Assembly: GCA_028683655.1 (NCBI GenBank)
Contig: JAQUHK010000002.1
Coordinates: 996-64,995 of the forward strand
Length of the DNA stretch: 64,000 nt
Direction of reading: 5' to 3'
Source: Alphaproteobacteria bacterium
GTDB lineage: Bacteria; Pseudomonadota; Alphaproteobacteria; UBA9219
Shown: one piece after another, positions 1,106-35,272 of the stretch
How positions within the stretch are numbered: position 1 is the stretch's first letter
How the letters are laid out: every line of letters begins with the position of its first letter
Translations under genes and position numbers: made by a program
The notes under the pieces: model-generated
What the model was told of the DNA's origin: nothing
What the model saw: the letters and a program-made list of their open reading frames with translations, nothing else
The model's database searches: none

Positions 1106-1168
1106 CTAACCCTTTGAAAAGCGTGGTGGGTGCGACAGGGATTGAACCTGTGACCCCTACCGTGTGAA
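1106..1168. repeat. Direct repeat copy 1 of tRNA-Val 3' half plus 3' flank (att-like, distal island boundary)
   Basis: ctaacccYttgaaaagcgtggtgggtgcgacagggattgaacctgtgacccctaccgtgtgaa recurs near-identically at 38852..38916 and 59031..59095. The last copy overlaps the intact tRNA-Val. Confidence 0.8.
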
Positions 1169-1346
1169 CGGACAAAGAAGGACGGAAATGCTGGAAAATC
1201 AGTGCGTTATTGTGCATCAAAAGTCGCCAAATGTCGTCTTGTGCAGCCCATAACTCACACATGACTCGCACAAACTTCTTTTCAGTTGTTATATTGCTAC
1301 CCCAGCCATGCTTGCCGGATTGATGATGTTAGGCGATGTTATGGGC

Positions 1347-1757: not shown

Positions 1758-2378
1758 TTAGAAGAACCTCAATAGTGTTTGGTAAGAACATCAGTTGTAT
1801 TGGATCGACAGAAAGCTGGGTCATGCCCTGCGCAAACAGCCGTTGTTTGTTGCACAAGGTGCCGAAGTTTTGGCAAGAAAAGCACTCTCGAACTGAAGAT
1901 GCGAGGGCGTCTTAAGCGCGACAAGCTGGTAGGCAGGGCCATCTGCATAAACAATCGAAGGCAGACTTTGATAATCACTTATGGTTTCGATCAGAGCTGG
2001 CATTTACAATTTCTACACATAAAAATGGCATTCAGTGTGACAGCGAATGACAACTGGCCCATTGTCTTTTTTTGTGTATCTGAACGTTTCCGCGGATAAC
2101 TAATAACTCTAACTGAATGAGATCAAAAGGAAAGACATTCTTTATGACAACTCATGCTTATCGATCCGTTGGGTTCATAGGCTTGTAACACATTGTTATA
2201 TATATGATCTCATTTAGGCCAATGACGTTAAATTAAGAAGAAAAACTAGACAATATCAATAGGTTGGGTCTATCTTCGCCTGTATCAGAGTCAAGTCAAT
2301 ATACCCGTAGTTTCTAAAAGTTTCCCTTTCATGGGGACAACTCATGAGTTCCTCTCGTAAGAAAGTTTGATTGATACA

Positions 2379-4688
2379 ATGAACCAAGCCACGCACAACA
2401 AGATAGTCTCCTTTGTTTGGGGCATTGCGGATGATGTATTAAGGGACTTATTCAAACGTGGCAAATACCCTGATGTCATCCTTCCGATGTGCGTGTTGCG
2501 GCGATTGGACGCCGTGTTGGAGCCGACAAAGCAAGCGGTAATCGATACGAAAAAGATGCTCGATGATGCGCGCATTACCGAGCAAGGGCAGGCTCTCTGC
2601 TCAGCCGCAGGACAGGCTTTCTACAACATTTCACGGTTTACTCTACGCGACCTCAAATCACGCGGAAGCCAGCAACAGCTATTGGCAGATTTCGAAGATT
2701 ATCTAAATGGGTTTTCTCAGAACGTTCAGGATATTCTTGAGAACTTCAAGTTCAGAAATCAGCTCTCGACACTTTCAAAAAGCGATGCACTCGGAACCTT
2801 AATCAACAAGTTCCTTGATCCTGAATTTGATCTTTCGCCCACTGGCATCGACAACCATTCAATGGGGACAGTATTTGAAGAGCTTGTCCGTCGCTTTAAC
2901 GAAGAGAACAATGAAGAGGCCGGAGAGCACTGGACACCTCGCGATGCCGTAAGTCTGATGGCAAATCTTGTTTTCCAGCCTATTGAGAAAGACCTCAAGT
3001 CTGGAACCTACCTTCTTTACGATTGTGCGTGTGGAACAGGCGGTATGCTAACCGTTGCTGAAGAAACGTTGAAGGGCATTGCTAAAAAACGAAAGATAGA
3101 TATCAACGCGGCTCTGTATGGACAGGAAATCAATCCTGAAACCTATGCTATCTGCAAAGCCGATATGATTTTAAAGGGTGAAGGAGAAAACGCCAATCAC
3201 ATCGTAGGCGGCGCTGAGTGGTCAACTCTTTCGCATGATGCCTTTCCGGCGCGAGAATTCGACTTTATGTTGGCCAACCCTCCTTATGGAAAAAGCTGGA
3301 AAAAAGATTTAGAGGCGATGGGTGGCAAAGATGGCATCCGCGATCCTCGCTTCAAAGTTATGCTCAACGATGAGGAATTGTCGTTAGTGACGCGGTCAAG
3401 CGATGGGCAGATGCTTTTCCTTGCCAACATGGTTTCCAAAATGAACGACAAGTCATCTTTGGGTAGCCGCATAGCCGAGGTTCATAACGGAAGCTCACTT
3501 TTCACAGGAGATGCAGGACAAGGTGAAAGCAACATTCGCCGTTGGATCATTGAGAGTGATTGGTTAGAAGCTATCGTCGCGCTCCCGCTTAATATTTTCT
3601 ACAACACGGGCATTGCAACTTACATTTGGGTGCTGTCGAACAGGAAGCCAAAACACCGCAAAGGAAAAGTTCAGCTTATTGACGCAAGCCAATGGTTTGA
3701 GCCGTTACGGAAAAACCTTGGCAAAAAGAGCTGCAAGTTAAATGAAGAAAATATAGACCGCATTATGCGCACATTTTTGGAGTTTAAAGAAACTCCGGAG
3801 TCCAAGATTTTCTCCAACGAGGCTTTTGGTTATTGGAAAGTGACCGTTGAAAGGCCGTTACGCCTGAACAGTCAGTTCTCAGTGAAGGCCATTGAGCCCT
3901 TGCGTTACGCGTCCGGTGATGAGGACATTCGAACCATTCTTTATGATGAATTCGGAGATAAGCTTTTCACCAACTTTAAATCCATTCTGCCCAGCCTTGA
4001 GAAGAGGCTTGAGGAATGGGGCGGCGATGAAGATCAGACTGATGCGGATGGTGATGAAGAAACACCCGCTAAGAAAGGGCTCGCAGAAAAGAAGAAAAAG
4101 AAGCTTCTTGACCCTAAAACGTGGGAGCGCGATGGGCGTTTGGTTGATGTAGCCAATAAGCTAAGAGCTGAGCTTGGCGATAAGCTTTATGATGACCACA
4201 ACGCATTCCGCGCCAAGCTCGATGAAGTTCTTAAACGGCTTGATATAAAACTTCCCGCTTCGGAACTGAAACAAATTATCAAAGCTGTGAGCTGGCAGGT
4301 TGAAACGGCTCCCCCCGTGATTGCAAAAGTTCATAAGGCAGGCAAGATAAAGGCTGACCCGATCCATGGGCTGTTTGAGGTTACGCTGAACGGTAAGGCG
4401 GCCATCGTTGAATATGAGACTGACAGTGATTTGCGCGATACAGAGCAAGTCCCCTTGCTTGAAGAAGGTGGCATCGAAGCTTTTATCCAGCGCGAGGTTC
4501 TTCCCTACACGCCGGATGCTTGGATCAAAGAAGGCGCAACCAAGATTGGGTATGAAGTCAGCTTCACCCGCCACTTCTATAAGCCAAAGCCACTGCGCAC
4601 GTTAGAGGAGATCAGCAAAGATATCCTCGCGCTTGAGCAGGAAACGGAAGGTTTGTTGGATGATTTGTTAAAAGGAGGCTCGAAGTGA
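2379..4688 (+). CDS. hsdM: Type I restriction-modification system, N6-adenine DNA methyltransferase subunit HsdM (long C-terminal extension)
   Basis: HsdM N-terminal domain pattern; DCACGTGGML motif I; LANPPYG (NPPY) motif IV. Track ORF starts at TTG 2367; first ATG is at 2379. Confidence 0.9.
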   Translation: MNQATHNKIVSFVWGIADDVLRDLFKRGKYPDVILPMCVLRRLDAVLEPTKQAVIDTKKMLDDARITEQGQALCSAAGQAFYNISRFTLRDLKSRGSQQQLLADFEDYLNGFSQNVQDILENFKFRNQLSTLSKSDALGTLINKFLDPEFDLSPTGIDNHSMGTVFEELVRRFNEENNEEAGEHWTPRDAVSLMANLVFQPIEKDLKSGTYLLYDCACGTGGMLTVAEETLKGIAKKRKIDINAALYGQEINPETYAICKADMILKGEGENANHIVGGAEWSTLSHDAFPAREFDFMLANPPYGKSWKKDLEAMGGKDGIRDPRFKVMLNDEELSLVTRSSDGQMLFLANMVSKMNDKSSLGSRIAEVHNGSSLFTGDAGQGESNIRRWIIESDWLEAIVALPLNIFYNTGIATYIWVLSNRKPKHRKGKVQLIDASQWFEPLRKNLGKKSCKLNEENIDRIMRTFLEFKETPESKIFSNEAFGYWKVTVERPLRLNSQFSVKAIEPLRYASGDEDIRTILYDEFGDKLFTNFKSILPSLEKRLEEWGGDEDQTDADGDEETPAKKGLAEKKKKKLLDPKTWERDGRLVDVANKLRAELGDKLYDDHNAFRAKLDEVLKRLDIKLPASELKQIIKAVSWQVETAPPVIAKVHKAGKIKADPIHGLFEVTLNGKAAIVEYETDSDLRDTEQVPLLEEGGIEAFIQREVLPYTPDAWIKEGATKIGYEVSFTRHFYKPKPLRTLEEISKDILALEQETEGLLDDLLKGGSK

Positions 4689-6787
4689 AAGCGACTGAAG
4701 CCAAACTTCTCGATTTCCTGAAGAAATCACCACAGTTCGTTATTCCGATTTATCAGCGTACCTATTCGTGGACAGAAAAGGAATGCAGACAGCTTTGGGA
4801 CGACATTGTTCGCACGGGTGCTGATGATCATATCTCGGTGCATTTTGTTGGGTCTATAGTTTACATCGATAAAGCTGACTCCACGGTCACAACGTGGGAG
4901 CCGCTACTCGTTATCGATGGACAACAACGGCTGACAACTGTGACGCTGCTCATTGCTGCGCTTGCCAATGCCCTTGGGGATAGGGAGCCAGTTGATGGTT
5001 TCTCCGCTGATGCCTTGCGGGGGTACTATCTTATGAACCCGTTGGAAAAAGGTGAGCGTAAATTAAAACTGCTCCTTTCCCAAACGGATAAAGCGACGCT
5101 AATCAACATTGTTTCGGGCCAAGATAGACCGAAAGAATATTCCCTGCGCGTCGACCAGAACTTCAAGCTCTTTGAGGGTTTGATTGCAGCAAACCAAAGC
5201 AATTTGGAGGCCGTGTGCAAGGGCTTGGTTAAGCTGATGATGGTGGACATCAAACTCAAACGTGGGGACGACAACCCGCAGCTTATCTTTGAAAGCATGA
5301 ACTCCACGGGCAAAGAACTAAGCCAAGCAGACCTAATCCGTAATTATATCCTGATGGGATTGGAGCCGGAACTGCAAACGAGGCTGTATGAGCAGTATTG
5401 GCGTCCTATGGAAGTGGATTTCGGACAGGAAGCCTATAGCAGTTATTTTGACGCGTTCATGCGGCATTACCTCACGGTGAAAACTGGCGAGATACCGCGC
5501 ATAGACGAAGTCTATGAGGCATTTAAGGCTCACGCCTGCTCACCTGCCGTCGTGGCCACTGGCATTGAAGAGATTGTAAAAGATATTCGTTCTTTTGCGC
5601 GGTTCTTCTGCGCCATGGCGCTTGGTGCTGAGACGGATAAGGAACTCAATCAAGCTTTCCATGATTTGCGTGAGCTGAAGGTTGATGTCGCTTATCCCTT
5701 TCTTTTGGAATTGTATGATGACTACGCCAATGGAAGGCTGAGTGTTGAAGACTTTGTTGCGGCTGTTCGCTTGGTTGAAGCTTATGTGTTCCGCCGTGCT
5801 GTATGCGCCATACCAACAAACTCTATGAACAAGACCTTTGCTACCTTTAACAAGGTTCTTAAAAAAGACAGATACCTTGAGAGCATTCAGGCGCACTTCC
5901 TCACGCTGCCATCCTATCGTCGCTTCCCAAGTGATGAGGAGTTCCGCCGAGACCTTGTTATCCGCGATCTTTATAACTTGAGAACCCGTAGTTATTGGCT
6001 AAGACGGCTCGAGAACCATGGGCGCAAAGAGCGTGTCGTGGTTGATGAATACACCATCGAGCATATTATGCCGCAGAACCCCAACCTGTCAGCGGCATGG
6101 AGGGAAGCCCTTGGCGCTGAGCATGAACGGGTGCAGGAGCAATGGCTCCATACCCTCGGAAATCTTACGCTTACGGGATACAATGCTGAATACAGCGACC
6201 GACCCTTCGTTGAAAAACGTGATATGAAGGGCGGATACAAGGAAAGCCCGCTTAAACTCAACGCAGGTCTTGGGCAACTCGAAAATTGGAATGAGACAGC
6301 AATCCAAGAACGTGCGGCGCGTCTTGCAGATCAAGTTCTTATTGTATGGCGTGCGCCAAAGCTAGATGCGGAAACGTTGGCTGCCTATAAGCCCGTTACG
6401 CCTGAGGGAACAGACTCTTTCACGATTGATGACCATCCACACTTACTCGCGCCTTCTATGCGAGAAGTTTTTGAGGCCTTTCGCAAGGAAGTGCTCGCCC
6501 TTGATCCCTGTGTCACAGAAACATTCTTGAAGCTTTATGTAGCGTATAAGGCCGAGACAAACTTTGTCGATGTGGTGCCACAGGCCAAAGGGTTCCGCCT
6601 TAGCCTGAATATGCGTTTTAATGAGATTAATGATCCCAAGGGACTTTGTCTCGACACAACAAACAAGGGGCGCTGGGGTAATGGTGATGTTGAAGTGCGC
6701 CTGAAATCGCTTGATGAGTTGCCCTATGTCATGGGGCTTGTTCGCCAATCCTATGAACGTCAGATGGGTGATGGTGTCCAATCATGA
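4685..6787 (+). CDS. DUF262/DUF1524 (GmrSD-like, ParB-like N-term plus HNH-like C-term) putative Type IV restriction nuclease embedded in the hsd operon
   Basis: IPIYQRTYSW and VIDGQQRLTT (DGQQR) motifs of DUF262. C-terminal YTIEHIMPQNP His-Me finger-like (DUF1524). GTGA overlap with the hsdM stop. Confidence 0.8.
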   Translation: MKATEAKLLDFLKKSPQFVIPIYQRTYSWTEKECRQLWDDIVRTGADDHISVHFVGSIVYIDKADSTVTTWEPLLVIDGQQRLTTVTLLIAALANALGDREPVDGFSADALRGYYLMNPLEKGERKLKLLLSQTDKATLINIVSGQDRPKEYSLRVDQNFKLFEGLIAANQSNLEAVCKGLVKLMMVDIKLKRGDDNPQLIFESMNSTGKELSQADLIRNYILMGLEPELQTRLYEQYWRPMEVDFGQEAYSSYFDAFMRHYLTVKTGEIPRIDEVYEAFKAHACSPAVVATGIEEIVKDIRSFARFFCAMALGAETDKELNQAFHDLRELKVDVAYPFLLELYDDYANGRLSVEDFVAAVRLVEAYVFRRAVCAIPTNSMNKTFATFNKVLKKDRYLESIQAHFLTLPSYRRFPSDEEFRRDLVIRDLYNLRTRSYWLRRLENHGRKERVVVDEYTIEHIMPQNPNLSAAWREALGAEHERVQEQWLHTLGNLTLTGYNAEYSDRPFVEKRDMKGGYKESPLKLNAGLGQLENWNETAIQERAARLADQVLIVWRAPKLDAETLAAYKPVTPEGTDSFTIDDHPHLLAPSMREVFEAFRKEVLALDPCVTETFLKLYVAYKAETNFVDVVPQAKGFRLSLNMRFNEINDPKGLCLDTTNKGRWGNGDVEVRLKSLDELPYVMGLVRQSYERQMGDGVQS

Positions 6788-8136
6788 TTGCTGATTTGAA
6801 GCCATATCCAGAGTACAAGCCAACCGATCAGGTTTGGATTGGTGATGTACCCGCGCATTGGAAAGTTTTACCAAATCGTGCGCTGTTTGCTGAGGTGAAG
6901 GATCGAGACAATGTTGACGAAGAAATGCTGTCCGTTACTATAAAACGAGGCATTGTTCAACAGAGAGCCCTACTTGCATCAGGATCGAAGAAAGACAGTT
7001 CAAATTTAGACAAGTCGGCTTACAAGCTCGTGCGGCCACACGATATTGCTTACAATAAAATGAGAGCTTGGCAGGGAGCAATAGGCGCATCAGATCTTCG
7101 TGGAATCATAAGTCCCGCTTATGTCGTTATGCGCCTACGTGAAGATTATAACCTCTCGCGCTATTTTCACCATCTATACCGAACGCCGCAGTTTGCAAAG
7201 GAAGCTGAACGATGGTCTTACGGAATAACATCAGATATGTGGAGTCTGCGGCCTGAGCATTTTAAAATGATTTATACTCCTGAGCCGCCACCCACTGAGC
7301 AGTTCGCAATTAACCGTTTCTTAGATTGGGCGAATGGGAGGTTTGAGCGGGCGATTAAGGCTAAACGCAAAATGATTGCGCTGTTGAATGAGCAGAAGCA
7401 GAGCATCATTCACCGTGCCGTAACCCAAGGCCTTGATCCCAACGTTCCCCTCAAACCCTCCGGCATTCCCTGGCTTGGCGATATCCCCGCTCATTGGAAA
7501 ATATCTAGGGTCAAGAACGAGTTTCGTTGTTTGAACACACAAAGAGTTCCTCTAAATGCTGTCGAACGCGGAGCAATGACTTCACGAATCTACGATTACT
7601 ATGGGGCATCAGGTATTATTGATAAGGTTGATGCTTTTCTTTTTAATGATGACCTGCTTCTGATTGCGGAGGATGGGGCCAACTTAGTGCTTCGCAATCT
7701 TCCCCTCGCGATAATTGCTAGGGGTAAGTTCTGGGTTAATAACCATGCACATATCCTTAAGCCGAAACGAGGCAGCCTTGTTTATCTCGCTCATCTTCTT
7801 GAGACGTTGAGCTACAATCCTTGGATCTCTGGAGCAGCACAGCCAAAGCTAACGCAAGATCGACTAATGTCTATTTCCATCGCGGTTGCACCACCAGAAG
7901 AGCAAGATGCAATTGTTGCTTATACGACTGAGCAAACTCGTCCGTTAATAACAGCCATTACACGCCTTGAACATGAAATAGAACTCCTTCGCGAATATCG
8001 CACACGGCTTGTGGCCGATGTCGTTACAGGTAAACTTGATGTGCGTGAGGTAGCAAGAAATCTACCTGATCTTCAGAAGGATGAAATTTTTCTTGAATCA
8101 GAGGGTGATATTATGTCCGAGTTGGAGGAGGCGTGA
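6784..8136 (+). CDS. hsdS: Type I RM specificity subunit HsdS (two target-recognition domains)
   Basis: Two repeated TRD halves with conserved central and C-terminal coiled-coil spacers (LITAITRLEHEIELLREYRTRL). ATGA overlap with the upstream gene. Confidence 0.85.
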   Translation: MIADLKPYPEYKPTDQVWIGDVPAHWKVLPNRALFAEVKDRDNVDEEMLSVTIKRGIVQQRALLASGSKKDSSNLDKSAYKLVRPHDIAYNKMRAWQGAIGASDLRGIISPAYVVMRLREDYNLSRYFHHLYRTPQFAKEAERWSYGITSDMWSLRPEHFKMIYTPEPPPTEQFAINRFLDWANGRFERAIKAKRKMIALLNEQKQSIIHRAVTQGLDPNVPLKPSGIPWLGDIPAHWKISRVKNEFRCLNTQRVPLNAVERGAMTSRIYDYYGASGIIDKVDAFLFNDDLLLIAEDGANLVLRNLPLAIIARGKFWVNNHAHILKPKRGSLVYLAHLLETLSYNPWISGAAQPKLTQDRLMSISIAVAPPEEQDAIVAYTTEQTRPLITAITRLEHEIELLREYRTRLVADVVTGKLDVREVARNLPDLQKDEIFLESEGDIMSELEEA

Positions 8137-8786
8137 CCATGCCGAATCCTCCCACAAACCCGAAGATATATCATATTGCTCATGTGGATCGTTTGGCTTC
8201 CGTTATAGAATCAGGGGGATTGCTATCAGACTCGGTTATGTGTCAACGGGCAGGAGCTGGAACCACGATAGGGATGGGGAAAATTAAGCAAAGGCGGCTT
8301 TCTTTGGCTATTGAGTGCCATAGAGATACATATGTTGCGGATTATGTTCCGTTCTACTTTTGTACTCGCTCTGTCATGCTATATTTGATATATATGGGGA
8401 ATCATCAGGACTTGACTTATCGTGGAGGGCAAGGCCCCATCGTTCATATGGAATCCGACTTATCTGAAGTTGTGGATTGGGCCAATGAACAGGGACGTAA
8501 ATGGTGCTTTTCTTTGTCCAACGCTGGGGCGTGTTATACTGAGTTCCGTAACGACTTAACCCAACTTAGTGAAATTAATTGGCCTGCTGTCATGGCTACC
8601 GACTTTCGTCAGGCCGATATCAAGGAAGGTAAACAAGCCGAGTTTTTGCTTCATGGTTACTTCCCATGGCATCTAGTTCGGCGGATCGGTGTACATTCAA
8701 CGGCTGTAGCGCAACAGGTATATGCTGCTACGCAAGGAGCTGATCATCGTCCACCTGTCGAAATACGGACTGAGTGGTATTACTGA
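8133..8786 (+). CDS. darT: DarT (DUF4433) ssDNA ADP-ribosyltransferase toxin
   Basis: KIYHIAHVDRLASVIESGGLL, YVPFYFCTRSVMLY, KQAEFLLHGYFPW and C-terminal EWYY match DarT hallmark motifs. Overlaps the hsdS stop (GTG 8133, or ATG 8139). Confidence 0.8.
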   Translation: MTMPNPPTNPKIYHIAHVDRLASVIESGGLLSDSVMCQRAGAGTTIGMGKIKQRRLSLAIECHRDTYVADYVPFYFCTRSVMLYLIYMGNHQDLTYRGGQGPIVHMESDLSEVVDWANEQGRKWCFSLSNAGACYTEFRNDLTQLSEINWPAVMATDFRQADIKEGKQAEFLLHGYFPWHLVRRIGVHSTAVAQQVYAATQGADHRPPVEIRTEWYY

Positions 8787-8803
8787 AAAGAGGGGAGGTC
8801 AAA

Positions 8804-9865
8804 ATGATTACATACAGAAAAGGCGATATCCTCTCGGCAGATGTTGAAGCTTTGGTCAATACCGTTAATTGTGTTGGCATCATGGGGCGTGGAATTGCGC
8901 TCCAATTCAAGAATGCGTTTCCTTATAACTTTAAGGCCTATGAAGAAGCCTGCCAAAAGGGTGAAGTACAGCCAGGAAGAATGTTTGTTCATGATATGAA
9001 CACTTTAGTAAATCCGCGGTATATTATTAACTTTCCTACCAAGCGGCATTGGCGGGGTAAGAGTCGCATGGAGGACATTCAGTCCGGCTTGCAGGCATTG
9101 GTCGAAGTAATACGCAAAAGAAACATTCGCTCAATCGCTATTCCTCCTTTAGGAAGCGGACTTGGTGGTTTGTCGTGGTTAGACGTTCGTCCCCAGATCG
9201 AAGAAGCCCTTAGGGGATTTAATAATCTTGAGGTTGTGGTTTACGAGCCTAATGGTGCCCCAGAAGCAAAGAATATGTCTAAATCAAGTGACGTTCCAAA
9301 AATGACAGCAGGGCGCGCGGCTCTGGTTGTCCTTGTTGATCGCTACTTGAAAGGGTTGCTCGACCCTTTCGTCACTCTTCTTGAGCTTCATAAGCTTATG
9401 TACTTTATGCAAGAGTCTGGTCAAAATTTGCGATTGAAGTATGTTAAGGCTCCCTATGGTCCATATGCTGAGAATCTTAGACATGTTTTACGACATGTAG
9501 AGGGGCACTTAATCTCTGGTTATGCGGATGGTGGGGACGCACCGGATAAGCAAATTGAACTCGTTCCTGGCGCAATAGCTGACGCTGAATTATTTCTTCG
9601 AGATAACGATGAAACCCGTTATCGATTTGATCGAGTGGCTAATTTGGTTGAAGGGTTTGAATCTCCTTTTGGGTTGGAGTTGCTTTCAACTGTGCACTGG
9701 ATTTCCACTCATGATGAAGGTGAAAAGACTTTAGGTAATATTATTCAGCAAACGTATGCTTGGAACGAACGTAAACGCCAGTTTAGTCCCAATCAAATAC
9801 AACTTGCATGCCAGGTTTTAGCCGATAAGGGTTGGTCTTCAGGCGTATTAACGAGAAGCGCATGA
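8804..9865 (+). CDS. darG: DarG macrodomain antitoxin (ADP-ribosyl-DNA glycohydrolase)
   Basis: N-terminal macrodomain MITYRKGDILSADVEALVNTVNCVGIMGRGIALQFKN. Strong RBS gaggggagg before the ATG at 8804. Sits immediately downstream of darT. Confidence 0.8.
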   Translation: MITYRKGDILSADVEALVNTVNCVGIMGRGIALQFKNAFPYNFKAYEEACQKGEVQPGRMFVHDMNTLVNPRYIINFPTKRHWRGKSRMEDIQSGLQALVEVIRKRNIRSIAIPPLGSGLGGLSWLDVRPQIEEALRGFNNLEVVVYEPNGAPEAKNMSKSSDVPKMTAGRAALVVLVDRYLKGLLDPFVTLLELHKLMYFMQESGQNLRLKYVKAPYGPYAENLRHVLRHVEGHLISGYADGGDAPDKQIELVPGAIADAELFLRDNDETRYRFDRVANLVEGFESPFGLELLSTVHWISTHDEGEKTLGNIIQQTYAWNERKRQFSPNQIQLACQVLADKGWSSGVLTRSA

Positions 9866-12800
9866 CGACGGACACGAGCGAAAAGGGTCTTGAAACTCTT
9901 ATCATCCGGCATATGACTGGCTTGGATGGCATTGGCGTTGCGCCCAATCAGGTGGCGGAGCAACCCAATGCCTCCGGCACAGGCTACCATGCTGGAAGCC
10001 CCAAGGACTTTGATCGCACCCATATACTCGATGTGCCACAACTCTTTGCCTTCTTACGTGCCACTCAACTCGCCGCCTTTGAAAAGCTTGGCATCGCCAA
10101 TGCTGATGATCCCAAAGACATTACTCGGTTACAGCTTCTTGCGCGACTGTCCTCAGAGATCGGCAAGCGCGGTGTTATCGATGTGATACGCAAAGGCATT
10201 GAGCACGGGCCTGTTCATTTTGATCTGTTCTATGCCACGCCCTCAGAAGGCAATGTTAAGGCGCAAGAGCTTCACGCCAAGAACCGCTTCTCAATCACGC
10301 GTCAGGTTGGATATAGCCTTGATGAGGCACGTCGCGCTCTTGACCTTTGCCTTTTTATCAATGGTCTCCCTATCTCAACGTTTGAGCTGAAAAACAGCCT
10401 GACCAAACAGACCGTCGAAGACGCCGTTGAACAATACCGCCGTGACCGCGACCCACGCGAACTTCTTTTCGGGTTTGGTCGTTGTGTTGTTCATTTCGCC
10501 GTGGATGATAGCGAAGTGCGTATGTGTACAGAACTGAAAGGGAAAGCCTCTTGGTTCCTGCCATTCAACAAGGGGTACAATGATGGAGCAGGAAATCCGC
10601 CAAATTCTACTGGCCTCAAGACGGATTATTTGTGGAAAGAAATCCTTCACCCGCAAAGGCTAACAGAAATTCTTGAAAACTATGCGCAGATTGTCGAAAT
10701 TAAAAATGAAAAGACGGGCAGGAAAAAACGCGTCCAGATTTTCCCTCGCTATCATCAGCTCCGCGTTGTCCGTAAGACTCTGGCGGATGTTCAGGCCAAT
10801 GGGGTCGGTAAACGCTATTTAATCCAGCATTCGGCGGGAAGCGGTAAATCAAACTCTATCGCGTGGCTCTCCCATCAGTTGATCGGTGTGAAACGTAATG
10901 ACAAGGAAGTCTTTGGTTCGGTCATCGTCGTAACAGATCGCACCATATTGGATGACCAGATTCAAAAGACCATTAAGCAATTTTTACAGGTTGGTGCCAT
11001 CGTCGGCCATGCCGAACATTCAGGCGACCTTCGTAAGTTTATTACTGAGGGCAAAAAGATCATCGTCTCTACGGTTCAAAAGTTCCCCTTTATCCTCGAT
11101 GAAATCTCCGCCGTTGGGGGCAAGACGTTTGCCATCGTGATTGATGAGGCTCATTCGAGCCAAGGCGGCAAGACCTCGACTGCCATGAGCAGAGCCCTAA
11201 GCAACCCAACAACCGAAGAAGAAGTTGATCCAGAAGATACCGTCAATGAGGCTTTGGAAAAGCGGATTGCTGGCCGCAGGATGCTCACGAATGCGAGTTA
11301 TTTTGCGTTTACCGCGACGCCCAAGAACAAAACGCTCGAAATGTTTGGTGAGGCTTTGCCACCGGATTCAGAAGGCAAAGTCAAACATACACCCTTTGAC
11401 AGCTATACAATGAAACAGGCCATTGAAGAGAGGTTCATCCTTGATGTTTTGAAGGCCTACACACCTGTTGATAGCTATTACAAGCTAATCAAGCGGATTG
11501 AAGATGATCCTGAGTTTGATGCTAAACGCGCCAACAAAAAGCTTCGCAAGTTCGTTGAAACTCATGATCACGCCATCCGCCTAAAGGCGGAGATTATGGT
11601 TGACCACTTCCATAATCAAGTTATCGCCTCCGGTAAGATCGGTGGGCAAGCCCGCGCCATGATCATCACGAATGGCATTGAGCGTGCGATTCAATACTAT
11701 CACGCGGTCAAAGACTATCTTGTCGAGCGAAAGAGCCCCTATCAAGCCATCGTTGCCTTCTCTGGTGAGCCAGAATACAAGGGCATCAAAGTCAGTGAAG
11801 CTTCCCTAAACGGCTTTTCTAGCAATGACATTGCGGACAGAATTCAAAATGATCCGTATCGTTTCCTGATTTGTGCCAACAAGTTCCAAACAGGCTATGA
11901 CGAACCGCTTTTGCACACAATGTATGTGGACAAGCCTCTTGCTGGCATTCAGGCTGTGCAGACCCTTTCACGGCTTAATCGGGCGCATCCGCAAAAACAT
12001 GACTGCTTTGTCCTCGACTTCCAAAATAACAGCGAGTCCATCACTCTCGCGTTTCAGGATTACTACCGCACAACTATCCTGAGTGAAGAAACCGATCCCA
12101 ATAAGCTTCACGACTTGAAAGCCGCGTTGGACGACGCTCAGGTCTATTCACCGCAACAGATTGAGACATTCGTCTCGCTATTTTTGGCGGGTGCAGAGCG
12201 CGACAAGCTAGACCCCATTTTGGATGTCTGCGTTGCAACATACAGTGAAGCCCTTGATGAAGATCAGCAGGTCGATTTTAAGGGCAAGGCAAAGATGTTC
12301 ACAAGAACTTATGACTTCCTTGCCTCGGTGATGCCGTACACGAACAGCGAGTGGGAAAGGCTTTCAATACTGTTGAACCTCCTTGTTCCGAAACTCCCTG
12401 CACCTAAGGAGCAAGATTTATCGAAAGGCATTTTAGAAGCCATCGATATGGATAGCTACCGCGTCGAGAAAAAGGCCGTGATGAAGCTTGCCTTAGAGAA
12501 TAAGGATGCAAGCATTGCTCCGATCCCATTGGATAACCGTGGTGGGAGGGCGGAGCCTGAGTTGGATAGGCTTAGCAACATTATTCATAGCTTTAATGAA
12601 AACTTCGGCACATTGTTCACGGACTCCGACCGCGTCGTAAAGCGTATCAGAGAAGATATTGTGCCTCAGGTGGCTGCGGATATTGCATACCAGAACGCCA
12701 AGCAGAACACCCCACACACAGCTCGCATGGCTCACGATCAAGCGTTAAATCGAGTTATGCAGGCACTTTTGAAAGACGACACACACGTCTACAAACAGTT

Positions 12801-12876
12801 TGTTGAGAACGAGTCCTTCAAACGCTTTGTCAGCGACATGGTCTTTGGGATAACAAACGAGGCTCGGCCAACTTGA
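9862..12876 (+). CDS. hsdR: Type I restriction enzyme R subunit HsdR (ResIII/SF2 helicase)
   Basis: Walker A HSAGSGKSNS; DEAH-like VIDEAHSSQ; motif III FTATP; QTLSRLNR motif VI. ATGA overlap with the darG stop. Confidence 0.9.
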   Translation: MTTDTSEKGLETLIIRHMTGLDGIGVAPNQVAEQPNASGTGYHAGSPKDFDRTHILDVPQLFAFLRATQLAAFEKLGIANADDPKDITRLQLLARLSSEIGKRGVIDVIRKGIEHGPVHFDLFYATPSEGNVKAQELHAKNRFSITRQVGYSLDEARRALDLCLFINGLPISTFELKNSLTKQTVEDAVEQYRRDRDPRELLFGFGRCVVHFAVDDSEVRMCTELKGKASWFLPFNKGYNDGAGNPPNSTGLKTDYLWKEILHPQRLTEILENYAQIVEIKNEKTGRKKRVQIFPRYHQLRVVRKTLADVQANGVGKRYLIQHSAGSGKSNSIAWLSHQLIGVKRNDKEVFGSVIVVTDRTILDDQIQKTIKQFLQVGAIVGHAEHSGDLRKFITEGKKIIVSTVQKFPFILDEISAVGGKTFAIVIDEAHSSQGGKTSTAMSRALSNPTTEEEVDPEDTVNEALEKRIAGRRMLTNASYFAFTATPKNKTLEMFGEALPPDSEGKVKHTPFDSYTMKQAIEERFILDVLKAYTPVDSYYKLIKRIEDDPEFDAKRANKKLRKFVETHDHAIRLKAEIMVDHFHNQVIASGKIGGQARAMIITNGIERAIQYYHAVKDYLVERKSPYQAIVAFSGEPEYKGIKVSEASLNGFSSNDIADRIQNDPYRFLICANKFQTGYDEPLLHTMYVDKPLAGIQAVQTLSRLNRAHPQKHDCFVLDFQNNSESITLAFQDYYRTTILSEETDPNKLHDLKAALDDAQVYSPQQIETFVSLFLAGAERDKLDPILDVCVATYSEALDEDQQVDFKGKAKMFTRTYDFLASVMPYTNSEWERLSILLNLLVPKLPAPKEQDLSKGILEAIDMDSYRVEKKAVMKLALENKDASIAPIPLDNRGGRAEPELDRLSNIIHSFNENFGTLFTDSDRVVKRIREDIVPQVAADIAYQNAKQNTPHTARMAHDQALNRVMQALLKDDTHVYKQFVENESFKRFVSDMVFGITNEARPT

Positions 12877-13992: not shown

Positions 13993-14517
13993 TTAAGCAA
14001 TCTTAAGCCGTTCAAGAGCACTAGGGGGGATAAGCCGTTCAAGATAACAAATTGGGGCTGATGATCCATCGGCAAAAAGGGCAATTGTTTTACTTTTAAT
14101 AATTGCCCCTCTACGAACATGGGCCTGTAGCCACTTCGTATAGTCCTCACGAATTGTAAACACAGATAAATGCTGCCCGTGAGAAAGAGCCCAGTTGTCA
14201 AGCATAGCAAGAAATACGCTTACCGCTTTTGATCCCCTGTAATTGGGATACACATAGGCCTCGCCATATCGGACCGTCATTTCGTCAACCTTATTTGCCG
14301 TCATCGCACCGACAAGAGATTCCCCTGAAAACGACCCTACAATTACATGGTTTGGCGTTTCCTTGCAGCGGGCCCCCCATTCGCTCATTGTACAGACCAG
14401 TTCCGTTTTGGGATTGCCTGTCGAATAACGGCTGTCAGGTCCCGTTAGCGCGATTGTGCGAAGCTGTTTATATTTCGCCGCGTCATTTTCATCCAGAAAA
14501 CGGAAAGTCATACTCAT
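13993..14517 (-). CDS. GNAT-family N-acetyltransferase (putative)
   Basis: VYPNYRGSKAVSVFLAMLDNWAL resembles GNAT motif A (R/Q-x-x-G-x-G/A). Confidence 0.5.
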   Translation of the reverse strand: MSMTFRFLDENDAAKYKQLRTIALTGPDSRYSTGNPKTELVCTMSEWGARCKETPNHVIVGSFSGESLVGAMTANKVDEMTVRYGEAYVYPNYRGSKAVSVFLAMLDNWALSHGQHLSVFTIREDYTKWLQAHVRRGAIIKSKTIALFADGSSAPICYLERLIPPSALERLKIA

Positions 14518-15158
14518 TCAACAATCTCCGCTTCTTTCCATGCCGCATCAAAAGCAAATCTATACGCTGCCGCAAATGGACCTGCTTTGTGAAGGACAAC
14601 ATAGGGGGGGGTCTGGTGATCGAAAGAAATAAGTGCCAGATTATCGCCATAGGCATAGAAAGAGACGTCAGGCATTCCAATAATTTTTTTCTGTCGTCGT
14701 AAATCAGCCCACGTTCGTTTGAAGTTACCATCGGCTGCCAAAATCCGACCTCGTATCTTGCCTGTCTTTGCAAGATCAAGCATTTTCTTGCGATAAGCTT
14801 CTATGTTCTTAACAGCTTTTTGAAACGCACACTCGTTTGTAATGGATGCAAAAACATCCCCACCAAATTGTTCGAGGTAAGCTTCAACCTGTATTAAGAA
14901 ATCATTAAACCTATCTCGCCCTTCAAAAATCTCAACACCGATCGGTGCGCGACGAACGCCTTCATTTTCGATAAACTCAACACCAGCGTTACGAAAAGCC
15001 ACTGCTATTTTTTCAATCGTTTCTCTCTTCGGCGAGCTTTCTTCATTTTCAATATAGTGGATCGCTGCTGTGCTTAATCCACTATGCTTCGCGAGATCAC
15101 TACGATCCCAACCTAAAAGGACACGCGCTGCCCGAATTTGCTTGCCTGAAACGTGCAT
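14514..15158 (-). CDS. XRE-family HTH transcriptional regulator with C-terminal unknown domain (paralog family member)
   Basis: N-term QIRAARVLLGWDRSDLAKHSGLSTAAIHYIENE shares its pattern with 15983, 17444, 29168 and 53523. Confidence 0.65.
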   Translation of the reverse strand: MHVSGKQIRAARVLLGWDRSDLAKHSGLSTAAIHYIENEESSPKRETIEKIAVAFRNAGVEFIENEGVRRAPIGVEIFEGRDRFNDFLIQVEAYLEQFGGDVFASITNECAFQKAVKNIEAYRKKMLDLAKTGKIRGRILAADGNFKRTWADLRRQKKIIGMPDVSFYAYGDNLALISFDHQTPPYVVLHKAGPFAAAYRFAFDAAWKEAEIVE

Positions 15159-15982: not shown

Positions 15983-16672
15983 ATGAACACCGTGACCGCC
16001 GAACAGATTAGAGGGGCGCGATCCATGCAAAAATGGACACGCGAGGAAATGGCCGAGGCATCGGGGCTGTCTCGCAATACCATTTGCAATTTGGAATCCG
16101 GCGATCTTATTCCGCGCGGCAAGACGCTTGAGAAACTGTGCCAGGCCATGAAAGAGGTCGGGCTTGAGTTTACTGATGGCGGCGTTCGTCGCATAAGAAT
16201 GGATGTTGCGCTAATAGAAGGGGAAGACAGCGTTGACATTTTCCTCGACCTTCTTTTGAGCAAGGCAAAGAGCAAGGGGGGAGAAATCATCGGCATTTTT
16301 CCAACTCAAAAAGTTATGATGAAATCCCTTGGCATTGAAAACGGAAATTTTGAGCGTCTCAAAAAGATTCTGGTTCATGCCGATATGAAGGTTCTGTTAC
16401 GGGAAGCTGACGCGCCACAGTTCTTGCTCGACAAATTCCAGTACAAAATTGCACATGAAAGCTGCAATTGCGCCATGTCGTATTTTGTTTTTGATAATAG
16501 CTTTGCGATGGTGTTCCACGGCAACCGAGTACAATATAAGTACGCTGTTTTTAACAACACAGAAACAGCTATAGGAAACAGGATATATTTCAGTGGTGCG
16601 TGGATTGCTGCATCCTTCCGTCAAGCTTCGCGCCCCGTTCAACATAAGAAAGAAGAGCGTGCCCGCGCATAA
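15983..16672 (+). CDS. XRE-family HTH regulator paralog (229 aa)
   Basis: EQIRGARSMQKWTREEMAEASGLSRNTICNLESGD HTH motif; same family as 14514..15158 and 29168..29821. Confidence 0.65.
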   Translation: MNTVTAEQIRGARSMQKWTREEMAEASGLSRNTICNLESGDLIPRGKTLEKLCQAMKEVGLEFTDGGVRRIRMDVALIEGEDSVDIFLDLLLSKAKSKGGEIIGIFPTQKVMMKSLGIENGNFERLKKILVHADMKVLLREADAPQFLLDKFQYKIAHESCNCAMSYFVFDNSFAMVFHGNRVQYKYAVFNNTETAIGNRIYFSGAWIAASFRQASRPVQHKKEERARA

Positions 16673-16908: not shown

Positions 16909-17436
16909 ATGACGATAGGCACGACAAACAAACACCTCATCCACAACATTCATGAACCGCTTTTCACGTTCGCTTGGGATCGCGCGGAGCGCGTCAATCT
17001 CATCCTTTTCAGCGAAGACGGTAACGAGGTTCTGACCGTGAAGAAAGGCAAAGACTTCGATATTCTACGCGGGGTCCGCGAATGGGACGACAACACGCTA
17101 GAAGATACGGCACGACGCGTGGCAATAGATCATGCCAGCGCAACGCTTGATGCGGTGACAATCTGCGCCGTGCTTTCAACTCAGGGCGAACTACTTTGTG
17201 AAGTCTCGTATGAACTTGTCATAACCGCCTTTGTCAAAAGTCTAGGGCCGCGCCGCGCATGGCAAGAAACAGAATGCGAATTCATCGACAAAGAAACATT
17301 TCTTAAACGCTATCGTTCCGGCGACCGTGAGGAAATGGAAGTGCTGATTGGTATGGCAGAAGATTTTCGGGTGCGCCGTAGAACAGGCAAAAATTACCGT
17401 GAGCTGTCACAAACGAAATTCTCACAAAAGGCATAG
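16909..17436 (+). CDS. Hypothetical protein (176 aa)
   Basis: GGAGA RBS before the ATG at 16909; track ORF starts upstream at 16840. Confidence 0.4.
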   Translation: MTIGTTNKHLIHNIHEPLFTFAWDRAERVNLILFSEDGNEVLTVKKGKDFDILRGVREWDDNTLEDTARRVAIDHASATLDAVTICAVLSTQGELLCEVSYELVITAFVKSLGPRRAWQETECEFIDKETFLKRYRSGDREEMEVLIGMAEDFRVRRRTGKNYRELSQTKFSQKA

Positions 17437-17443
17437 GACACAA

Positions 17444-17770
17444 ATGATTTCTCGACAGCCTATCCCTAGACAAATCAAAGCCGCACGGGCATTGCTGAGT
17501 TGGACACGCAAGGATCTTGGCAACGAATCCGGCATGTGCGCAGAAACGATCAAAAACATCGAATATGGCGTCTCTTCGCCAAAGAAAGAAACACTAGCGG
17601 CGCTTGTCGATGCCTTCGCCCGTCATGGCGTTCAATTTGTTCACTATGAGACGCTTACCGGCGGTCCAACGGAGAGGGCCTCGAAGTGCTCATTGAAAGT
17701 CATTTCTTATGTTGGCGCGGTTCATCTCACTGTTACCGCACCTGAAATCATGGAGGAAGATCATGATTAA
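17444..17770 (+). CDS. Short XRE-family HTH regulator (108 aa), same paralog family
   Basis: RQIKAARALLSWTRKDLGNESGMCAETIKNIEYG. Confidence 0.6.
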   Translation: MISRQPIPRQIKAARALLSWTRKDLGNESGMCAETIKNIEYGVSSPKKETLAALVDAFARHGVQFVHYETLTGGPTERASKCSLKVISYVGAVHLTVTAPEIMEEDHD

Positions 17771-18035
17771 CTGCATGCACCCAAGTCGCATTCTCGATCA
17801 AATCACCACCGCAACAGATAAACGGTTTGAGCTTGTCGCGTGTATTGCTGACGCAATAGTTGAAACGACAATGGAGGTCGGTTACTGCGCGCAGGTAACT
17901 CTCATAGACAAAGGCTTCACGCATCAAGATGTAGCATATCTCTGGCATTTTGCCTGTGCGCTTGCTGACGTTGAACTTAAGTGCAGCAAGAACGGCATTT
18001 GTTCCCCTTTCGAGAAGGGGGTGCGCTATGCATAA
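17763..18035 (+). CDS. Hypothetical protein (90 aa)
   Basis: ATG at 17763 preceded by ggaggaag; overlaps neighbouring genes by a few nt. Confidence 0.35.
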   Translation: MINCMHPSRILDQITTATDKRFELVACIADAIVETTMEVGYCAQVTLIDKGFTHQDVAYLWHFACALADVELKCSKNGICSPFEKGVRYA

Positions 18036-18315
18036 AACGAAAGCTTGCTCGTCCCCTGCCTACATTAAGAAAGAGAGAATATCAAAACCAACAGAGAAAC
18101 TAACGCATAGAGAAGTCGAAATTTTGACTTGGAGCGCGAGAGGCAAGACACGCTCGGAAATATCCATCATACTGTCACTTTCTGAAGAAACAGTCAAAGA
18201 TCATTTAGCAAGAATCCTTCGGAAGCTGGGAGCAGTTAATAAAGTGCATGCTGTTTCAATAGCGTGTGTTCTAGGACTGATTGTGCCCTATCAAGAAAGC
18301 AACTTGAACGAGTGA
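18028..18315 (+). CDS. LuxR/GerE-type HTH transcriptional regulator (DNA-binding domain only)
   Basis: LTHREVEILTWSARGKTRSEISIILSLSEETVKDHLARILRKLGAVNKVHAV matches the GerE HTH. Confidence 0.65.
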   Translation: MHKTKACSSPAYIKKERISKPTEKLTHREVEILTWSARGKTRSEISIILSLSEETVKDHLARILRKLGAVNKVHAVSIACVLGLIVPYQESNLNE

Positions 18316-19589: not shown

Positions 19590-19620
19590 ACCTGTCTACC
19601 TTATATGAAAGGCCTTCACC

Positions 19621-20505: not shown

Positions 20506-20569
20506 TCCTGTTTCTGGCATAACTTTATTATGAAATGAGCCACCGCATCAGCGGTTTATTGGGGGAAGA

Positions 20570-21859: not shown

Positions 21860-21874
21860 AACGGGAGATATAAG

Positions 21875-22942: not shown

Positions 22943-23075
22943 GAATGCAAAGGTGTGTTGGCGGAACAAGCAACAAGGTGTAAACTCTGGCGCAGGTTGA
23001 GATGTTTGGCGTGCTTTAGCGTGAGCCGAATAAATAGAAAAAAAGATACCAACTTAACAATGAAAAGGGGGAATT

Positions 23076-24380: not shown

Positions 24381-24396
24381 TAGGCCTTTCCTCAAA

Positions 24397-24423
24397 AGAT
24401 ATAGCCTCGTCGAGGCTATATCT
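24397..24423. terminator. Perfect palindrome / hairpin after the mini-AlaRS gene
   Basis: AGATATAGCCTCG / CGAGGCTATATCT inverted repeat. No clear T-run, so it may be a terminator or a protein-binding site. Confidence 0.3.
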
Positions 24424-33869: not shown

Positions 33870-34289
33870 ATGACAGAAAACAATCCTTATCAAAGCATAC
33901 ACGGGGGCAGGGAAGAGCGGCTCGATTTTCCAGAATTAAAGGAACTTCCCAGTCTCGCCACCGCAAGTCAAATTGCCTGCTTTTTAAAATGTTCGAGACG
34001 GCATGTTTTGAATGAGTGCCATGCCGGACGCATTGAGTTCGTCAACATTGCAGGCCGTTTTTTAATCACACCACACAGTCTCAAAAATTATATTCAAGAA
34101 AGGATACAACCATGTCAAAGAGCAATAAAGGAGCCTATCTCAAATGGATTGAAGCGCGTAACGCGTGGTACATTGTCTGGTTCGAACACGGACGCGAGTA
34201 CAAGAAATCGACGGGCACTCGAAATCGCATTGAAGCTGACCAAGCACTCAGTTTGCACAACATCGAAAAAGACCAACCCATTGACATAG
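33870..34289 (+). CDS. AlpA/excisionase-like HTH protein (putative Xis); 3' end overlaps the integrase by about 177 nt in another frame
   Basis: ELPSLATASQIACFLKCSRRHVLNECHAGRIEFVNIAGRFLI is an AlpA-like HTH. The true stop is uncertain. Confidence 0.4.
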   Translation: MTENNPYQSIHGGREERLDFPELKELPSLATASQIACFLKCSRRHVLNECHAGRIEFVNIAGRFLITPHSLKNYIQERIQPCQRAIKEPISNGLKRVTRGTLSGSNTDASTRNRRALEIALKLTKHSVCTTSKKTNPLT

Positions 34290-35272
34290 TAAGCCCGACA
34301 CGCCGCATTATTGCAGATGTCCTTGTCTCATATGCTGAAGAACATGCCGTTCATGTTGCAAGCTCGACAACGATTGGCTTTAACATCAAGGCACTCATTC
34401 CATTTTGGGGACACCGTACCGTAGCCGATGTGCGCCCTGTGGCTTGCCGCGAATATCTGGCCTATCGACACAAGAATGCCCGCAGACAGGGTAAAACGCT
34501 TTCCGATGCTACTATATCACGGGAACTTGGGGTTCTCGCGGCAGCGATCCGACACGACTATAAACAGGGCCGCCTTGCTGCTCCGGCTCCCGTTTGGAAA
34601 CCAGCGCAATCTGCTCCGAAAGACCGTTGGTTGACGCGTGAAGAGGTCGCTCATCTGCTTAGAACTGCCCGTAACAAGAGGAGAGCAGACCACAAACATG
34701 AAAGTCGAACGCGCACGCACTCTTTCTCGCGTTGGCATTTGTCTTTCTTCATTCTTTTGGCTCTTTATACTGCTGCCAGAAAAGAGGCCATTCTGACACT
34801 GACTTGGTCACAGGTTGATCTTCAGAAAGGCATTATTGACCTGAACAAGCAGGGAGCCAAAATCACGAACAAACGTCGGGCCATTGTCCCCATACCGAGA
34901 AAGTTGATGACGTTTCTTCGTATTGCCAAAAGCCGTGCGCCTGAAATTTGCGACGACAAATGCGTGATGGATTACTTTGGCAAGCCAATTCTACGCATTG
35001 ACCAGAGCTTCCGTCGTGTTGTCGCAGATGCAGGATTGAAGAAGGTTACACCTCACACACTGCGCCACACAGCAGCAACATGGATGGCACAGGCAGGCGT
35101 GCCCATGTGGGTTATTTCAAAATACCTTGGCCACACCAGCACACGGACGACCGAGCGCATCTATGCTCATCACAATCCAGACTTTTTGGTTGAAGCAAAA
35201 GAGGCGTTGGAGAGGGGTGCAGGTAAGCAGAAAGAAGTGATCAAGAATCTTTCCACACCGTCACCATGCTGA
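34112..35272 (+). CDS. int: Tyrosine-type site-specific integrase (island A)
   Basis: TPHTLRHTAATWMAQAGVPMWVISKYLGHTSTRTTERIYAHH (R...HxxR...Y catalytic box). Confidence 0.85.
   Translation: MSKSNKGAYLKWIEARNAWYIVWFEHGREYKKSTGTRNRIEADQALSLHNIEKDQPIDIVSPTRRIIADVLVSYAEEHAVHVASSTTIGFNIKALIPFWGHRTVADVRPVACREYLAYRHKNARRQGKTLSDATISRELGVLAAAIRHDYKQGRLAAPAPVWKPAQSAPKDRWLTREEVAHLLRTARNKRRADHKHESRTRTHSFSRWHLSFFILLALYTAARKEAILTLTWSQVDLQKGIIDLNKQGAKITNKRRAIVPIPRKLMTFLRIAKSRAPEICDDKCVMDYFGKPILRIDQSFRRVVADAGLKKVTPHTLRHTAATWMAQAGVPMWVISKYLGHTSTRTTERIYAHHNPDFLVEAKEALERGAGKQKEVIKNLSTPSPC

Follow-up and report, generated by a model that had tools for sequence, protein, structure and literature searches.

The classic example of a second defence gene lodged inside the operon of a Type I restriction-modification (R-M) system is the prr locus, organized as hsdM-hsdS-prrC-hsdR. 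Its embedded product, PrrC, is an RNA-targeting anticodon nuclease, physically silenced by EcoprrI until a phage anti-restriction peptide frees it. We describe here an operon in which two modules are embedded in this way. It lies in a stretch of 64,000 nucleotides (nt) from an alphaproteobacterial assembly (contig JAQUHK010000002.1), a stretch that we name the window, where positions 2379 to 12876 hold successively hsdM, a GmrSD-like gene (DUF262/DUF1524), hsdS, darT, darG and hsdR. By contrast with prr, there is no sign here of a dependence of the embedded genes on their host system, and the cassettes of the window occur freely outside hsd operons.

Closer relatives are known for each half of the arrangement. 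The RRDM island of enteropathogenic Escherichia coli (EPEC) E2348/69, rptR-hsdM-hsdS-darT2-darG2-hsdR-M48, protects against phage and is repressed by RptR (NAR 2025, PMC12255303). A single RptR-controlled promoter was mapped upstream of the island, and hsdM transcripts rose upon infection; darTG2 was present in 12 of 54 rptR-linked Type I systems (PMC12255303). According to work cited in the introduction of that paper, DarTG1 and DarTG2 systems are protective when put into E. coli. The window shares with the EPEC island a DarT-DarG pair located between hsdS and hsdR, co-oriented and tightly packed, with a DarG of the macrodomain type. It differs from it by the addition of a GmrSD-like gene between hsdM and hsdS, whereas RptR as first open reading frame (ORF) and M48 after hsdR are features of EPEC, not of the window: neither an RptR-like regulator nor an M48 peptidase appeared among ORFs of at least 50 amino acids (aa) in positions 2100 to 2378, or as Pfam helix-turn-helix (HTH) or M48 matches in the flanking ORFs.

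On the GmrSD side, TgvAB is a system of that family embedded in a Type I R-M operon of the Vibrio cholerae pathogenicity island VPI-2, where it restricts hypermodified phages (PMC11411939). Here too a DUF262/DUF1524 function resides inside a Type I hsd operon, with the DGQQR and His-Me finger motifs conserved. TgvAB is made of two proteins, TgvA with DUF262 only and TgvB with DUF262 and DUF1524, whereas the window codes for one protein of 700 aa with DUF5655 in addition. Furthermore, the slot used in the window is hsdM/hsdS, and the description of the Vibrio system mentions no darTG (PMC11411939). HEC-06 and BrxU (HEC-05), GmrSD-like enzymes embedded in Hma and BREX systems (Payne et al., bioRxiv 10.1101/2024.01.29.577857), are single polypeptides like ours; they were found via 'guilt by embedding', and they cannot function without their DGQQR and E-H nuclease motifs. 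The window protein fits the PADLOC profile Orf5 (E-value 2.9e-193) far better than HEC-06 (9.4e-67), and it carries DUF5655; we thus take it as a relative of HEC-06, not as a member of the same family. According to Payne et al., embedding of GmrSD-like genes in Type I R-M systems is frequent, and 96.7% of embedded genes are co-oriented with their host system, which they read as co-regulation. Each embedding has therefore already been published, and the window operon belongs with Type I R-M operons that carry embedded defence cassettes. These studies (EPEC RRDM, TgvAB, Payne et al.), together with that of Jankevicius et al. (PMC5179494), uphold the claim of the first-pass annotation that both modules are known from hsd loci. 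Our literature search returned no paper describing a GmrSD-like gene and DarTG in one hsd operon, which is not proof of novelty.

We are fairly confident that the locus is a horizontally acquired defence operon, in which three autonomous modules are packed in one probable transcription unit. Its six genes are intact and co-directional (Table 1), and analysis of ORFs with Pfam, PADLOC and NCBIfam profiles returned exactly the gene order and domain content that had been proposed when the sequence was first annotated. Six long ORFs occupy the plus strand from 2367 to 12876, with no comparable ORF on the opposite strand; they are read in different frames, none being fused or interrupted, and the operon measures 10.5 kb. 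Domain E-values range from 1e-8 to 1e-62 with Pfam and go down to 1e-259 with PADLOC, so low that the pattern cannot be ascribed to chance. Each of the five enzymes of the operon has its catalytic residues, and every motif examined is intact. The idea of a decayed locus was rejected, with profiles covered essentially end to end and motifs intact.

The packing of the genes is extreme, with successive intergenic distances of -4, -4, +2 or -4, +17 and -4 nt. The 4-nt overlaps first announced for most junctions are read at three of the five, possibly four, the darT/darG junction being the one without overlap. The start of hsdM is most likely ATG 2379 rather than the alternative TTG 2367, because its homologues begin with MDQATHNK at the aligned position. 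For darT both starts listed in Table 1 are plausible: in L013, a related locus described below (we number in this way all the loci collected for comparison), an ATGA overlap with the hsdS stop lies at the position homologous to 8133. Such packing suggests that the six genes are probably co-transcribed from a promoter upstream of hsdM. The leader contains a weak sigma-70-like match at 2247-2276 (TAGACA-18-TATCTT, 9 of 12 positions) and no ORF of at least 50 aa on the plus strand; its alignment with the leaders of L013, L019 and L070 displayed no conserved sequence. Promoter-like matches are not enriched (18 found versus 15.3 expected in shuffles), and neither internal terminator-like nor internal promoter-like sites exceed the numbers in shuffled sequence, so that these scans, based on weak consensus models that may not be those of the alphaproteobacterial host, neither prove nor disprove a single transcript. 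Translation may be coupled as well. The Shine-Dalgarno sequences are weak at the gmrSD to hsdS and darG to hsdR overlaps, and for this reason the embedded genes may have to be translated for HsdS and HsdR to be made.

Table 1. Features of the window (coordinates along the 64,000-nt stretch; aa, amino acids; nt, nucleotides)
Feature	Coordinates	Strand	Description
Leader	2100..2378	+	Non-coding, upstream of hsdM; presumed operon promoter region
hsdM	2379..4688	+	Type I N6-adenine DNA methyltransferase subunit, 769 aa, long C-terminal extension
hsdM/gmrSD junction	start GTG 4685		GTGA overlap, 4 nt; AAAGGAGG upstream
GmrSD-like gene	4685..6787	+	700 aa; DUF262 NTPase, DUF1524 His-Me nuclease, C-terminal DUF5655
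gmrSD/hsdS junction	start ATG 6784		ATGA overlap, 4 nt
hsdS	6784..8136	+	Type I specificity subunit, 450 aa
hsdS/darT junction, option 1	start GTG 8133		GTGA overlap
hsdS/darT junction, option 2	start ATG 8139		2 nt past hsdS stop; GGAGGAGG seven nt upstream, ideal spacing
darT	8139..8786	+	DNA ADP-ribosyltransferase toxin, 215 aa (217 aa from GTG 8133)
darT/darG junction	start ATG 8804		17-nt spacer with GAGGGGAGG
darG	8804..9865	+	Macrodomain ADP-ribosyl-DNA glycohydrolase antitoxin, C-terminal DarT-binding domain, 353 aa
darG/hsdR junction	start ATG 9862		ATGA overlap, 4 nt
hsdR	9862..12876	+	Type I restriction/translocase subunit, 1004 aa
Distal att copy	1106..1171	-	3' 45 nt of tRNA-Val and 18 nt of flank, partial repeat
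Tyrosine integrase	34112..35272	+	Pfam Phage_integrase 1.7e-25; belongs to the element of about 37.7 kb
Inner-element defence genes	39098-51426	-	Snf2-type helicase (PADLOC HKD+Snf2, 1090 aa), DUF4391, Type III methyltransferase, PLD-like, Type III restriction subunit with RE_endonuc, AAA_13 ATPase (PADLOC PDC-S06)
XRE-type HTH proteins	14514-15158, 15983-16672, 17348-17770, 53523-54176	-, +, +, -	Paralogous proteins

The framework of the operon is a Type I R-M system, for which methylation and ATP-dependent restriction are predicted from the sequence. HsdM matches Pfam N6_Mtase (2.2e-53) and HsdM_N (1.1e-22), as well as PADLOC MTase_I over its full length (1.1e-259), with the S-adenosylmethionine-binding motif DCACGTGG at residue 215 and the catalytic NPPY at residue 300. 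In HsdS, Pfam Methylase_S covers the second half only (5.2e-08), and residues 5-423 match positions 4-440 of the 448-position PADLOC model Specificity_I (3.8e-85), in keeping with a specificity subunit made of target-recognition domains and conserved spacers. HsdR combines HSDR_N (2.2e-18), SWI2_SNF2 (9.3e-27), ResIII (4.4e-16) and T1R_D3-like (3.6e-15) domains in Pfam, and fits PADLOC REase_I (8.2e-45). Its motifs D...ELK175, GSGKS326, DEAH428 and QTGYD676 accord with a PD-(D/E)xK nuclease at the N-terminus and a superfamily-2 helicase/translocase motor.

The GmrSD-like gene is a single ORF that fills the whole hsdM-hsdS interval. The two domains proposed at the outset were retrieved with Pfam, namely GmrSD_N (DUF262, 9.4e-36) and GmrSD_C (DUF1524, 1.3e-25), and a C-terminal DUF5655 (1.4e-12) that the earlier description lacked must be added. 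Besides the PADLOC profiles already cited, the protein matches mREase_IV (8e-27), and residues 10-555 form the core covered by these models. The DUF262 part displays QR24, DGQQR78-82 and FESMN202 (FxxxN), while the His-Me motifs of DUF1524, E459-H460, N493 and N500, are in the same polypeptide. Sequence matches in the PDB are weak and point to 9jfl and SspE. The protein is 100% identical to an annotated protein of an alphaproteobacterial metagenome-assembled genome (MAG), and its homologues form more than 100 clusters at 697-706 aa. It is predicted to be a Type IV-like nuclease, with hypermodified phage DNA as its most plausible target. We considered whether the ORF might belong to hsdM or hsdS, through a fusion or a frameshift, and rejected this proposal: the gene has its own frame, distinct from those of hsdM and hsdS, its homologues form clusters of nearly its own length, and every homologue N-terminus that was read begins with MKATEA (the consensus of alignment A2, and loci L013, L107, L115, L150 and L112). 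Its status as a separate gene, assumed from the start, is thereby upheld.

The third module is the DarT-DarG pair. DarT matches Pfam DarT (DUF4433, 3e-62) and PADLOC DarT (2e-67), and reaches 241.9 bits with the NCBIfam model toxin_DarT, whose cut-off is 150. DarG reaches 473.3 bits with antitoxin_DarG (cut-off 250), with further matches to PADLOC DarG (6e-138) and Pfam Macro. The DUF4433 and Macro domains expected from the first-pass annotation are thus both in place, with scores above the curated NCBIfam cut-offs for the two proteins. In the PDB, DarT finds the enzymes of Thermus (7OMV, 1.1e-30) and Mycobacterium tuberculosis (7YK3, 2.7e-18). In the alignments, its E168, within KQAEF, falls on the E160A position of 7OMV and on the matching alanine in 7YK3. 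Mutation of E160 in Thermus DarT abolishes toxicity (PMC5179494), so that the catalytic glutamate, a residue on which the original identification hinged, is kept. DarG matches the macrodomain of Taq DarG (PDB 5M31, 2.9e-54), with K80 and N22 present, and its residues 167-335 match the C-terminal DarT-binding domain of M. tuberculosis DarG (7yk3_B, 1.1e-21). The sequence thus assigns the pair to the Thermus/Mycobacterium macrodomain type, which is DarTG2-like. A specificity of DarT for thymidine would follow from its nearest solved relatives, those of Thermus and M. tuberculosis.

How these modules are combined elsewhere was explored from both sides. A scan of species-representative genomes with DarG, of which the best 80 loci were kept (66-76% identity), was followed by tblastn with all six window proteins. 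In 16 of the 80, darT-darG is directly followed by an hsdR of the window's family, usually with hsdS and hsdM before; in about 60, no hsd gene was detectable nearby. The hsdM/hsdS junction is visible in 12 of the darTG-hsdR loci, and it is empty in 6 and occupied in 6. The cargo of the latter is varied: the same GmrSD-like gene as in the window (L013), another protein with GmrSD_N and GmrSD_C (L019), a GmrSD_N-only protein with PRTase-CE (L012), a GmrSD_N-only protein (L022), a Fic protein (L005) and a DUF1016/YhcG nuclease (L070). L013, from a gammaproteobacterial MAG (GC 65%), has exactly the six-gene order of the window. Identities to the window proteins are 80% for HsdM, 75% for GmrSD, 42% for HsdS, 56% for DarT, 70% for DarG and 78% for HsdR, the low value of HsdS being expected since target-recognition domains vary. 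GTGA, ATGA and ATGA overlaps are kept at its first three junctions, and its darG-hsdR gap is about 130 nt. In L040 (2386-8015), the hsdS-darT interval holds an AAA_21 ATPase, an ORF of 238 aa, a SIR2_2 protein and a protein of 474 aa without assignment, which may be a further multi-gene defence system in the same slot.

On the side of the GmrSD-like protein, homologues at 74-79% identity are present in several proteobacterial classes as well as in Acidobacteriota, Planctomycetota and Gemmatimonadota. The hsdS-hsdR interval of a different Type I family, with an HsdR of the EcoEI_R_C type, houses the gene in Nitrosospira and in a Phycisphaerae MAG, and in the Phycisphaerae locus there are 4-nt overlaps at both of its ends. 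A scan of metagenomes gave 80 loci at 68-77% identity. Among them, L107 (GC 53%) repeats the six-gene order, with two pairs of the HTH-Peptidase_M78/DUF4411 type added between darG and hsdR, and L086 is hsdM-gmrSD-hsdS-hsdR, without darTG. The placement hsdM-hsdS-GmrSD-hsdR is that of L001-L003, L098 and L134, in other Type I families; several metagenome loci likewise have the hsdS/hsdR placement, or belong to a third, more distant Type I family. In 27 loci, each flank extends over 3 kb or more; hsd genes lie within 4 kb in 13 of them and not in the other 14. Three of the latter were inspected (L112, L115 and L164), and all adjoin defence-type genes other than Type I: in one a Snf2 helicase and an N6_N4 methylase, in another an Eco57I-type methylase and an AAA ATPase, and in a third UvrD, PLD-Snf2 and a DUF1156 methylase. 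Wherever the junctions were read (window, L002, L013 and L107), overlaps of 4 nt bound the cassette at both ends. Identity to the window protein is independent of the host system, and this, together with the varied slots, the three Type I families and the neighbours outside Type I, is the pattern of an autonomous and promiscuous cassette, at 68-79% identity across several phyla.

The combination of this GmrSD-like gene with darTG recurs in the window, in L013 and in L107, which come from unrelated assemblies, and is thus not unique. Taken with L019, L012 and L022, where other DUF262 genes are found, double embedding appears to be recurrent, and combinatorial rather than obligate. In the operons sampled, 12 with darTG and a handful with GmrSD, the hsdM|hsdS and hsdS|hsdR junctions of the window's Type I family both act as cargo slots, with contents that seem to assort independently.

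No near-identity DNA match to the operon and no distant darTG match were returned by complete E. coli genomes. Distant relatives of hsdM are present there on plasmids L084 (NZ_CP133812.1) and L085 (NZ_CP021720.1), in a WYL-DUF262-hsdM-hsdS-hsdR arrangement that is located, in one of the two, about 2.4 kb from mcr-10.1. Another one, in the chromosome of E. coli XD35 (L166), is part of hsdM-hsdS-DUF4268-hsdR.

Horizontal acquisition is indicated by the surroundings. The sole tRNA of the window, tRNA-Val(cac), lies on the minus strand at 59049-59123. Its 3' end exists in three direct copies, one within the full tRNA and two partial: over 66 nt, the distal copy, which marks the end of the element carrying the operon, has 97% identity with 38852-38917; it also matches 59031-59095, which overlaps the tRNA. 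Next to tRNA-Val is a second tyrosine integrase (57972-59006), 34% identical to that of Table 1, and a relaxase/ArdC-like module of about 6 kb is repeated at 27804-33852 and 52144-57770, with 83-89% identity. We read these features as a tandem of two related integrative, mobilizable elements at tRNA-Val, one of about 20 kb and one of about 37.7 kb; the outer, larger one (about 1172-38851) would then carry the six-gene operon as cargo, at its integrase-distal end. A further element may have left a remnant at 1070-1081, where 12 nt match the integrase stop region (TTACAGCTGTAA).

Both elements carry other genes that deserve mention. The inner one harbours a second defence operon, in which a PLD-like gene is embedded between the mod and res genes of a Type III system (Table 1). 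Between the first integrase and its att copy, on the minus strand (36195-38522), is a protein of 775 aa without Pfam match; its C-terminus matches PADLOC Ppl (8e-17), and its N-terminal sequence opens on a His-rich stretch (DVHIHT) and contains a GGSSSGKS P-loop. It may be a further defence gene. The XRE-type HTH proteins, of about 215-230 aa and with a C-terminal domain without assignment, are scattered downstream of the hsd operon in both elements. On the plus strand, 18534-27105 contains three aminoacyl-tRNA-synthetase-like paralogues (one of the class II Asp/Lys/Asn type, two with an AlaRS catalytic domain), a SAM methyltransferase, an S66 LD-carboxypeptidase, an amidohydrolase and a radical SAM enzyme, with a LuxR-type regulator just upstream (17950-18315). 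The S66 peptidase family includes the microcin C immunity protein MccF. This region, located on the same element as the operon, has the appearance of a small biosynthetic gene cluster, whose product may be an antibiotic of the aminoacyl-nucleotide type.

The best-supported account of how the operon works is a layered division of labour among its three modules. The Type I R-M system would act on unmodified DNA. The GmrSD-type enzyme, with its gene inserted precisely between hsdM and hsdS, would cut modified DNA that escapes Type I. Finally, infection would disturb the balance between DarT and DarG, whereupon DarT would ADP-ribosylate single-stranded DNA and block replication, leading to abortive infection.

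Some observations weigh against this picture. HsdM and HsdR score below the old TIGRFAM equivalog cut-offs (TIGR00348 in the case of HsdR) and are no more than distant relatives of the solved EcoR124I and EcoKI proteins, which leaves the Type I subfamily unassigned. The family of GmrSD enzymes also has SspE, a sensor of phosphorothioates, among its members. As for DUF5655, an AlphaFold2 model derived from a 39-sequence alignment reached a predicted local distance difference test score (pLDDT) of only 67.8, and a Foldseek search of the PDB returned nothing at E<1, hence no assigned fold and no fold match pointing to a reader domain. The composition of the operon is also uneven: GC at third codon positions (GC3) is 0.52-0.54 in hsdM, gmrSD and hsdR versus 0.39-0.42 in hsdS, darT and darG (6784-9865). 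This step indicates a recent mosaic, the parts of which may not be balanced as yet. Internal promoters may also be present within hsdS or gmrSD. The backbone is closest to those of L013, L019 and L070 (78-80% for HsdM, 75-78% for HsdR), yet DarT is only 54-58% identical there; the closest DarT and DarG are those of L004 and L005 (67% and 74-76%), two loci with a backbone at only 65% identity. This discordance and the GC3 step imply that the hsdS-darTG segment was exchanged independently of the backbone, its apparent source being a donor of lower GC. The same facts feed an explanation in which the six genes would not make one operon at all: darTG, and perhaps gmrSD, would have their own promoters in the preceding coding sequences, and the overlaps would be incidental, a by-product of inserting cassettes at the boundaries between genes. 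Toxin-antitoxin pairs are usually autoregulated from a promoter of their own, and the wider darG-hsdR spacing of L013 fits this proposal, as does recombination, to which the discordance between its backbone (75-80%) and its DarT points. However, intergenic distances in the window are too short for external promoters and the scans gave no sign of internal terminators; moreover, embedded genes are co-oriented with their hosts in the proportion reported by Payne et al. (bioRxiv 10.1101/2024.01.29.577857), and the EPEC island has its one mapped promoter upstream (PMC12255303). We hold separate transcription units to be unlikely, while leaving some room for them.

Like that explanation, the two others that we weighed are less well supported than layered immunity from autonomous modules. 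DarTG might be mainly an addiction module, stabilizing the hsd operon and the integrative element by selfish hitch-hiking. This was proposed by Jankevicius et al. as an alternative reading of DarTG in Type I operons (PMC5179494), and it agrees with the location of the operon at the integrase-distal end of an att-flanked mobile element, and with the further toxin-antitoxin-like pairs that L107 has in the same slot. Yet the whole hsd-darTG2 island of EPEC is anti-phage and DarTG1 and DarTG2 protect E. coli (PMC12255303), the neighbours in the window and in related loci are overwhelmingly defence genes, and stabilization and defence are not mutually exclusive; that addiction displaces immunity here strikes us as distinctly improbable. 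The last possibility is that the modules are wired as a guard system, following the precedent of PrrC and EcoprrI. GmrSD, DarT or both would be latent under the Type I complex, or sense it, and a phage inhibitor of HsdMSR, similar to Ocr or ArdA, would release them. Precise embedding with start/stop overlaps common to the window and L013 could be understood in this way, as could translation of hsdS and hsdR that may depend on the embedded genes. PrrC, furthermore, is found embedded in Type I R-M systems and hardly anywhere else (Payne et al., bioRxiv 10.1101/2024.01.29.577857), and crosstalk between methylation and ADP-ribosylation has been raised as possible by Jankevicius et al. (PMC5179494). 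Such wiring is difficult to reconcile with the large majority of close DarG relatives that are devoid of detectable hsd neighbours, with a GmrSD cassette found at equal identity in three Type I families, in varied slots and beside systems other than Type I, and with the apparently independent assortment of cargo in the two slots. DarTG, HEC-06 and BrxU, in addition, each defend alone (PMC12255303, PMC11411939, bioRxiv 10.1101/2024.01.29.577857). We see very little likelihood in a guard of this kind, which would be an integrated system made of effectors that target DNA, and we would be most surprised if the operon proved to be wired, with HsdS coupled to translation of GmrSD and HsdR to that of DarG, with release of GmrSD or DarT upon inhibition of HsdMSR, or with both.

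Current views are not overturned by an operon of autonomous modules, every element of which has a published precedent; its general point, the behaviour of both junctions as cargo slots, is a small one. The window nevertheless provides a clean natural case of defence stacking by embedding, where three defences are gathered in one unit of 10.5 kb on a mobile element. Should the translational coupling be true, it would tie the dangerous HsdR to expression of the antitoxin, and the operon would offer a testable model for the way in which dangerous effectors, HsdR and DarT, are balanced against their protective partners.

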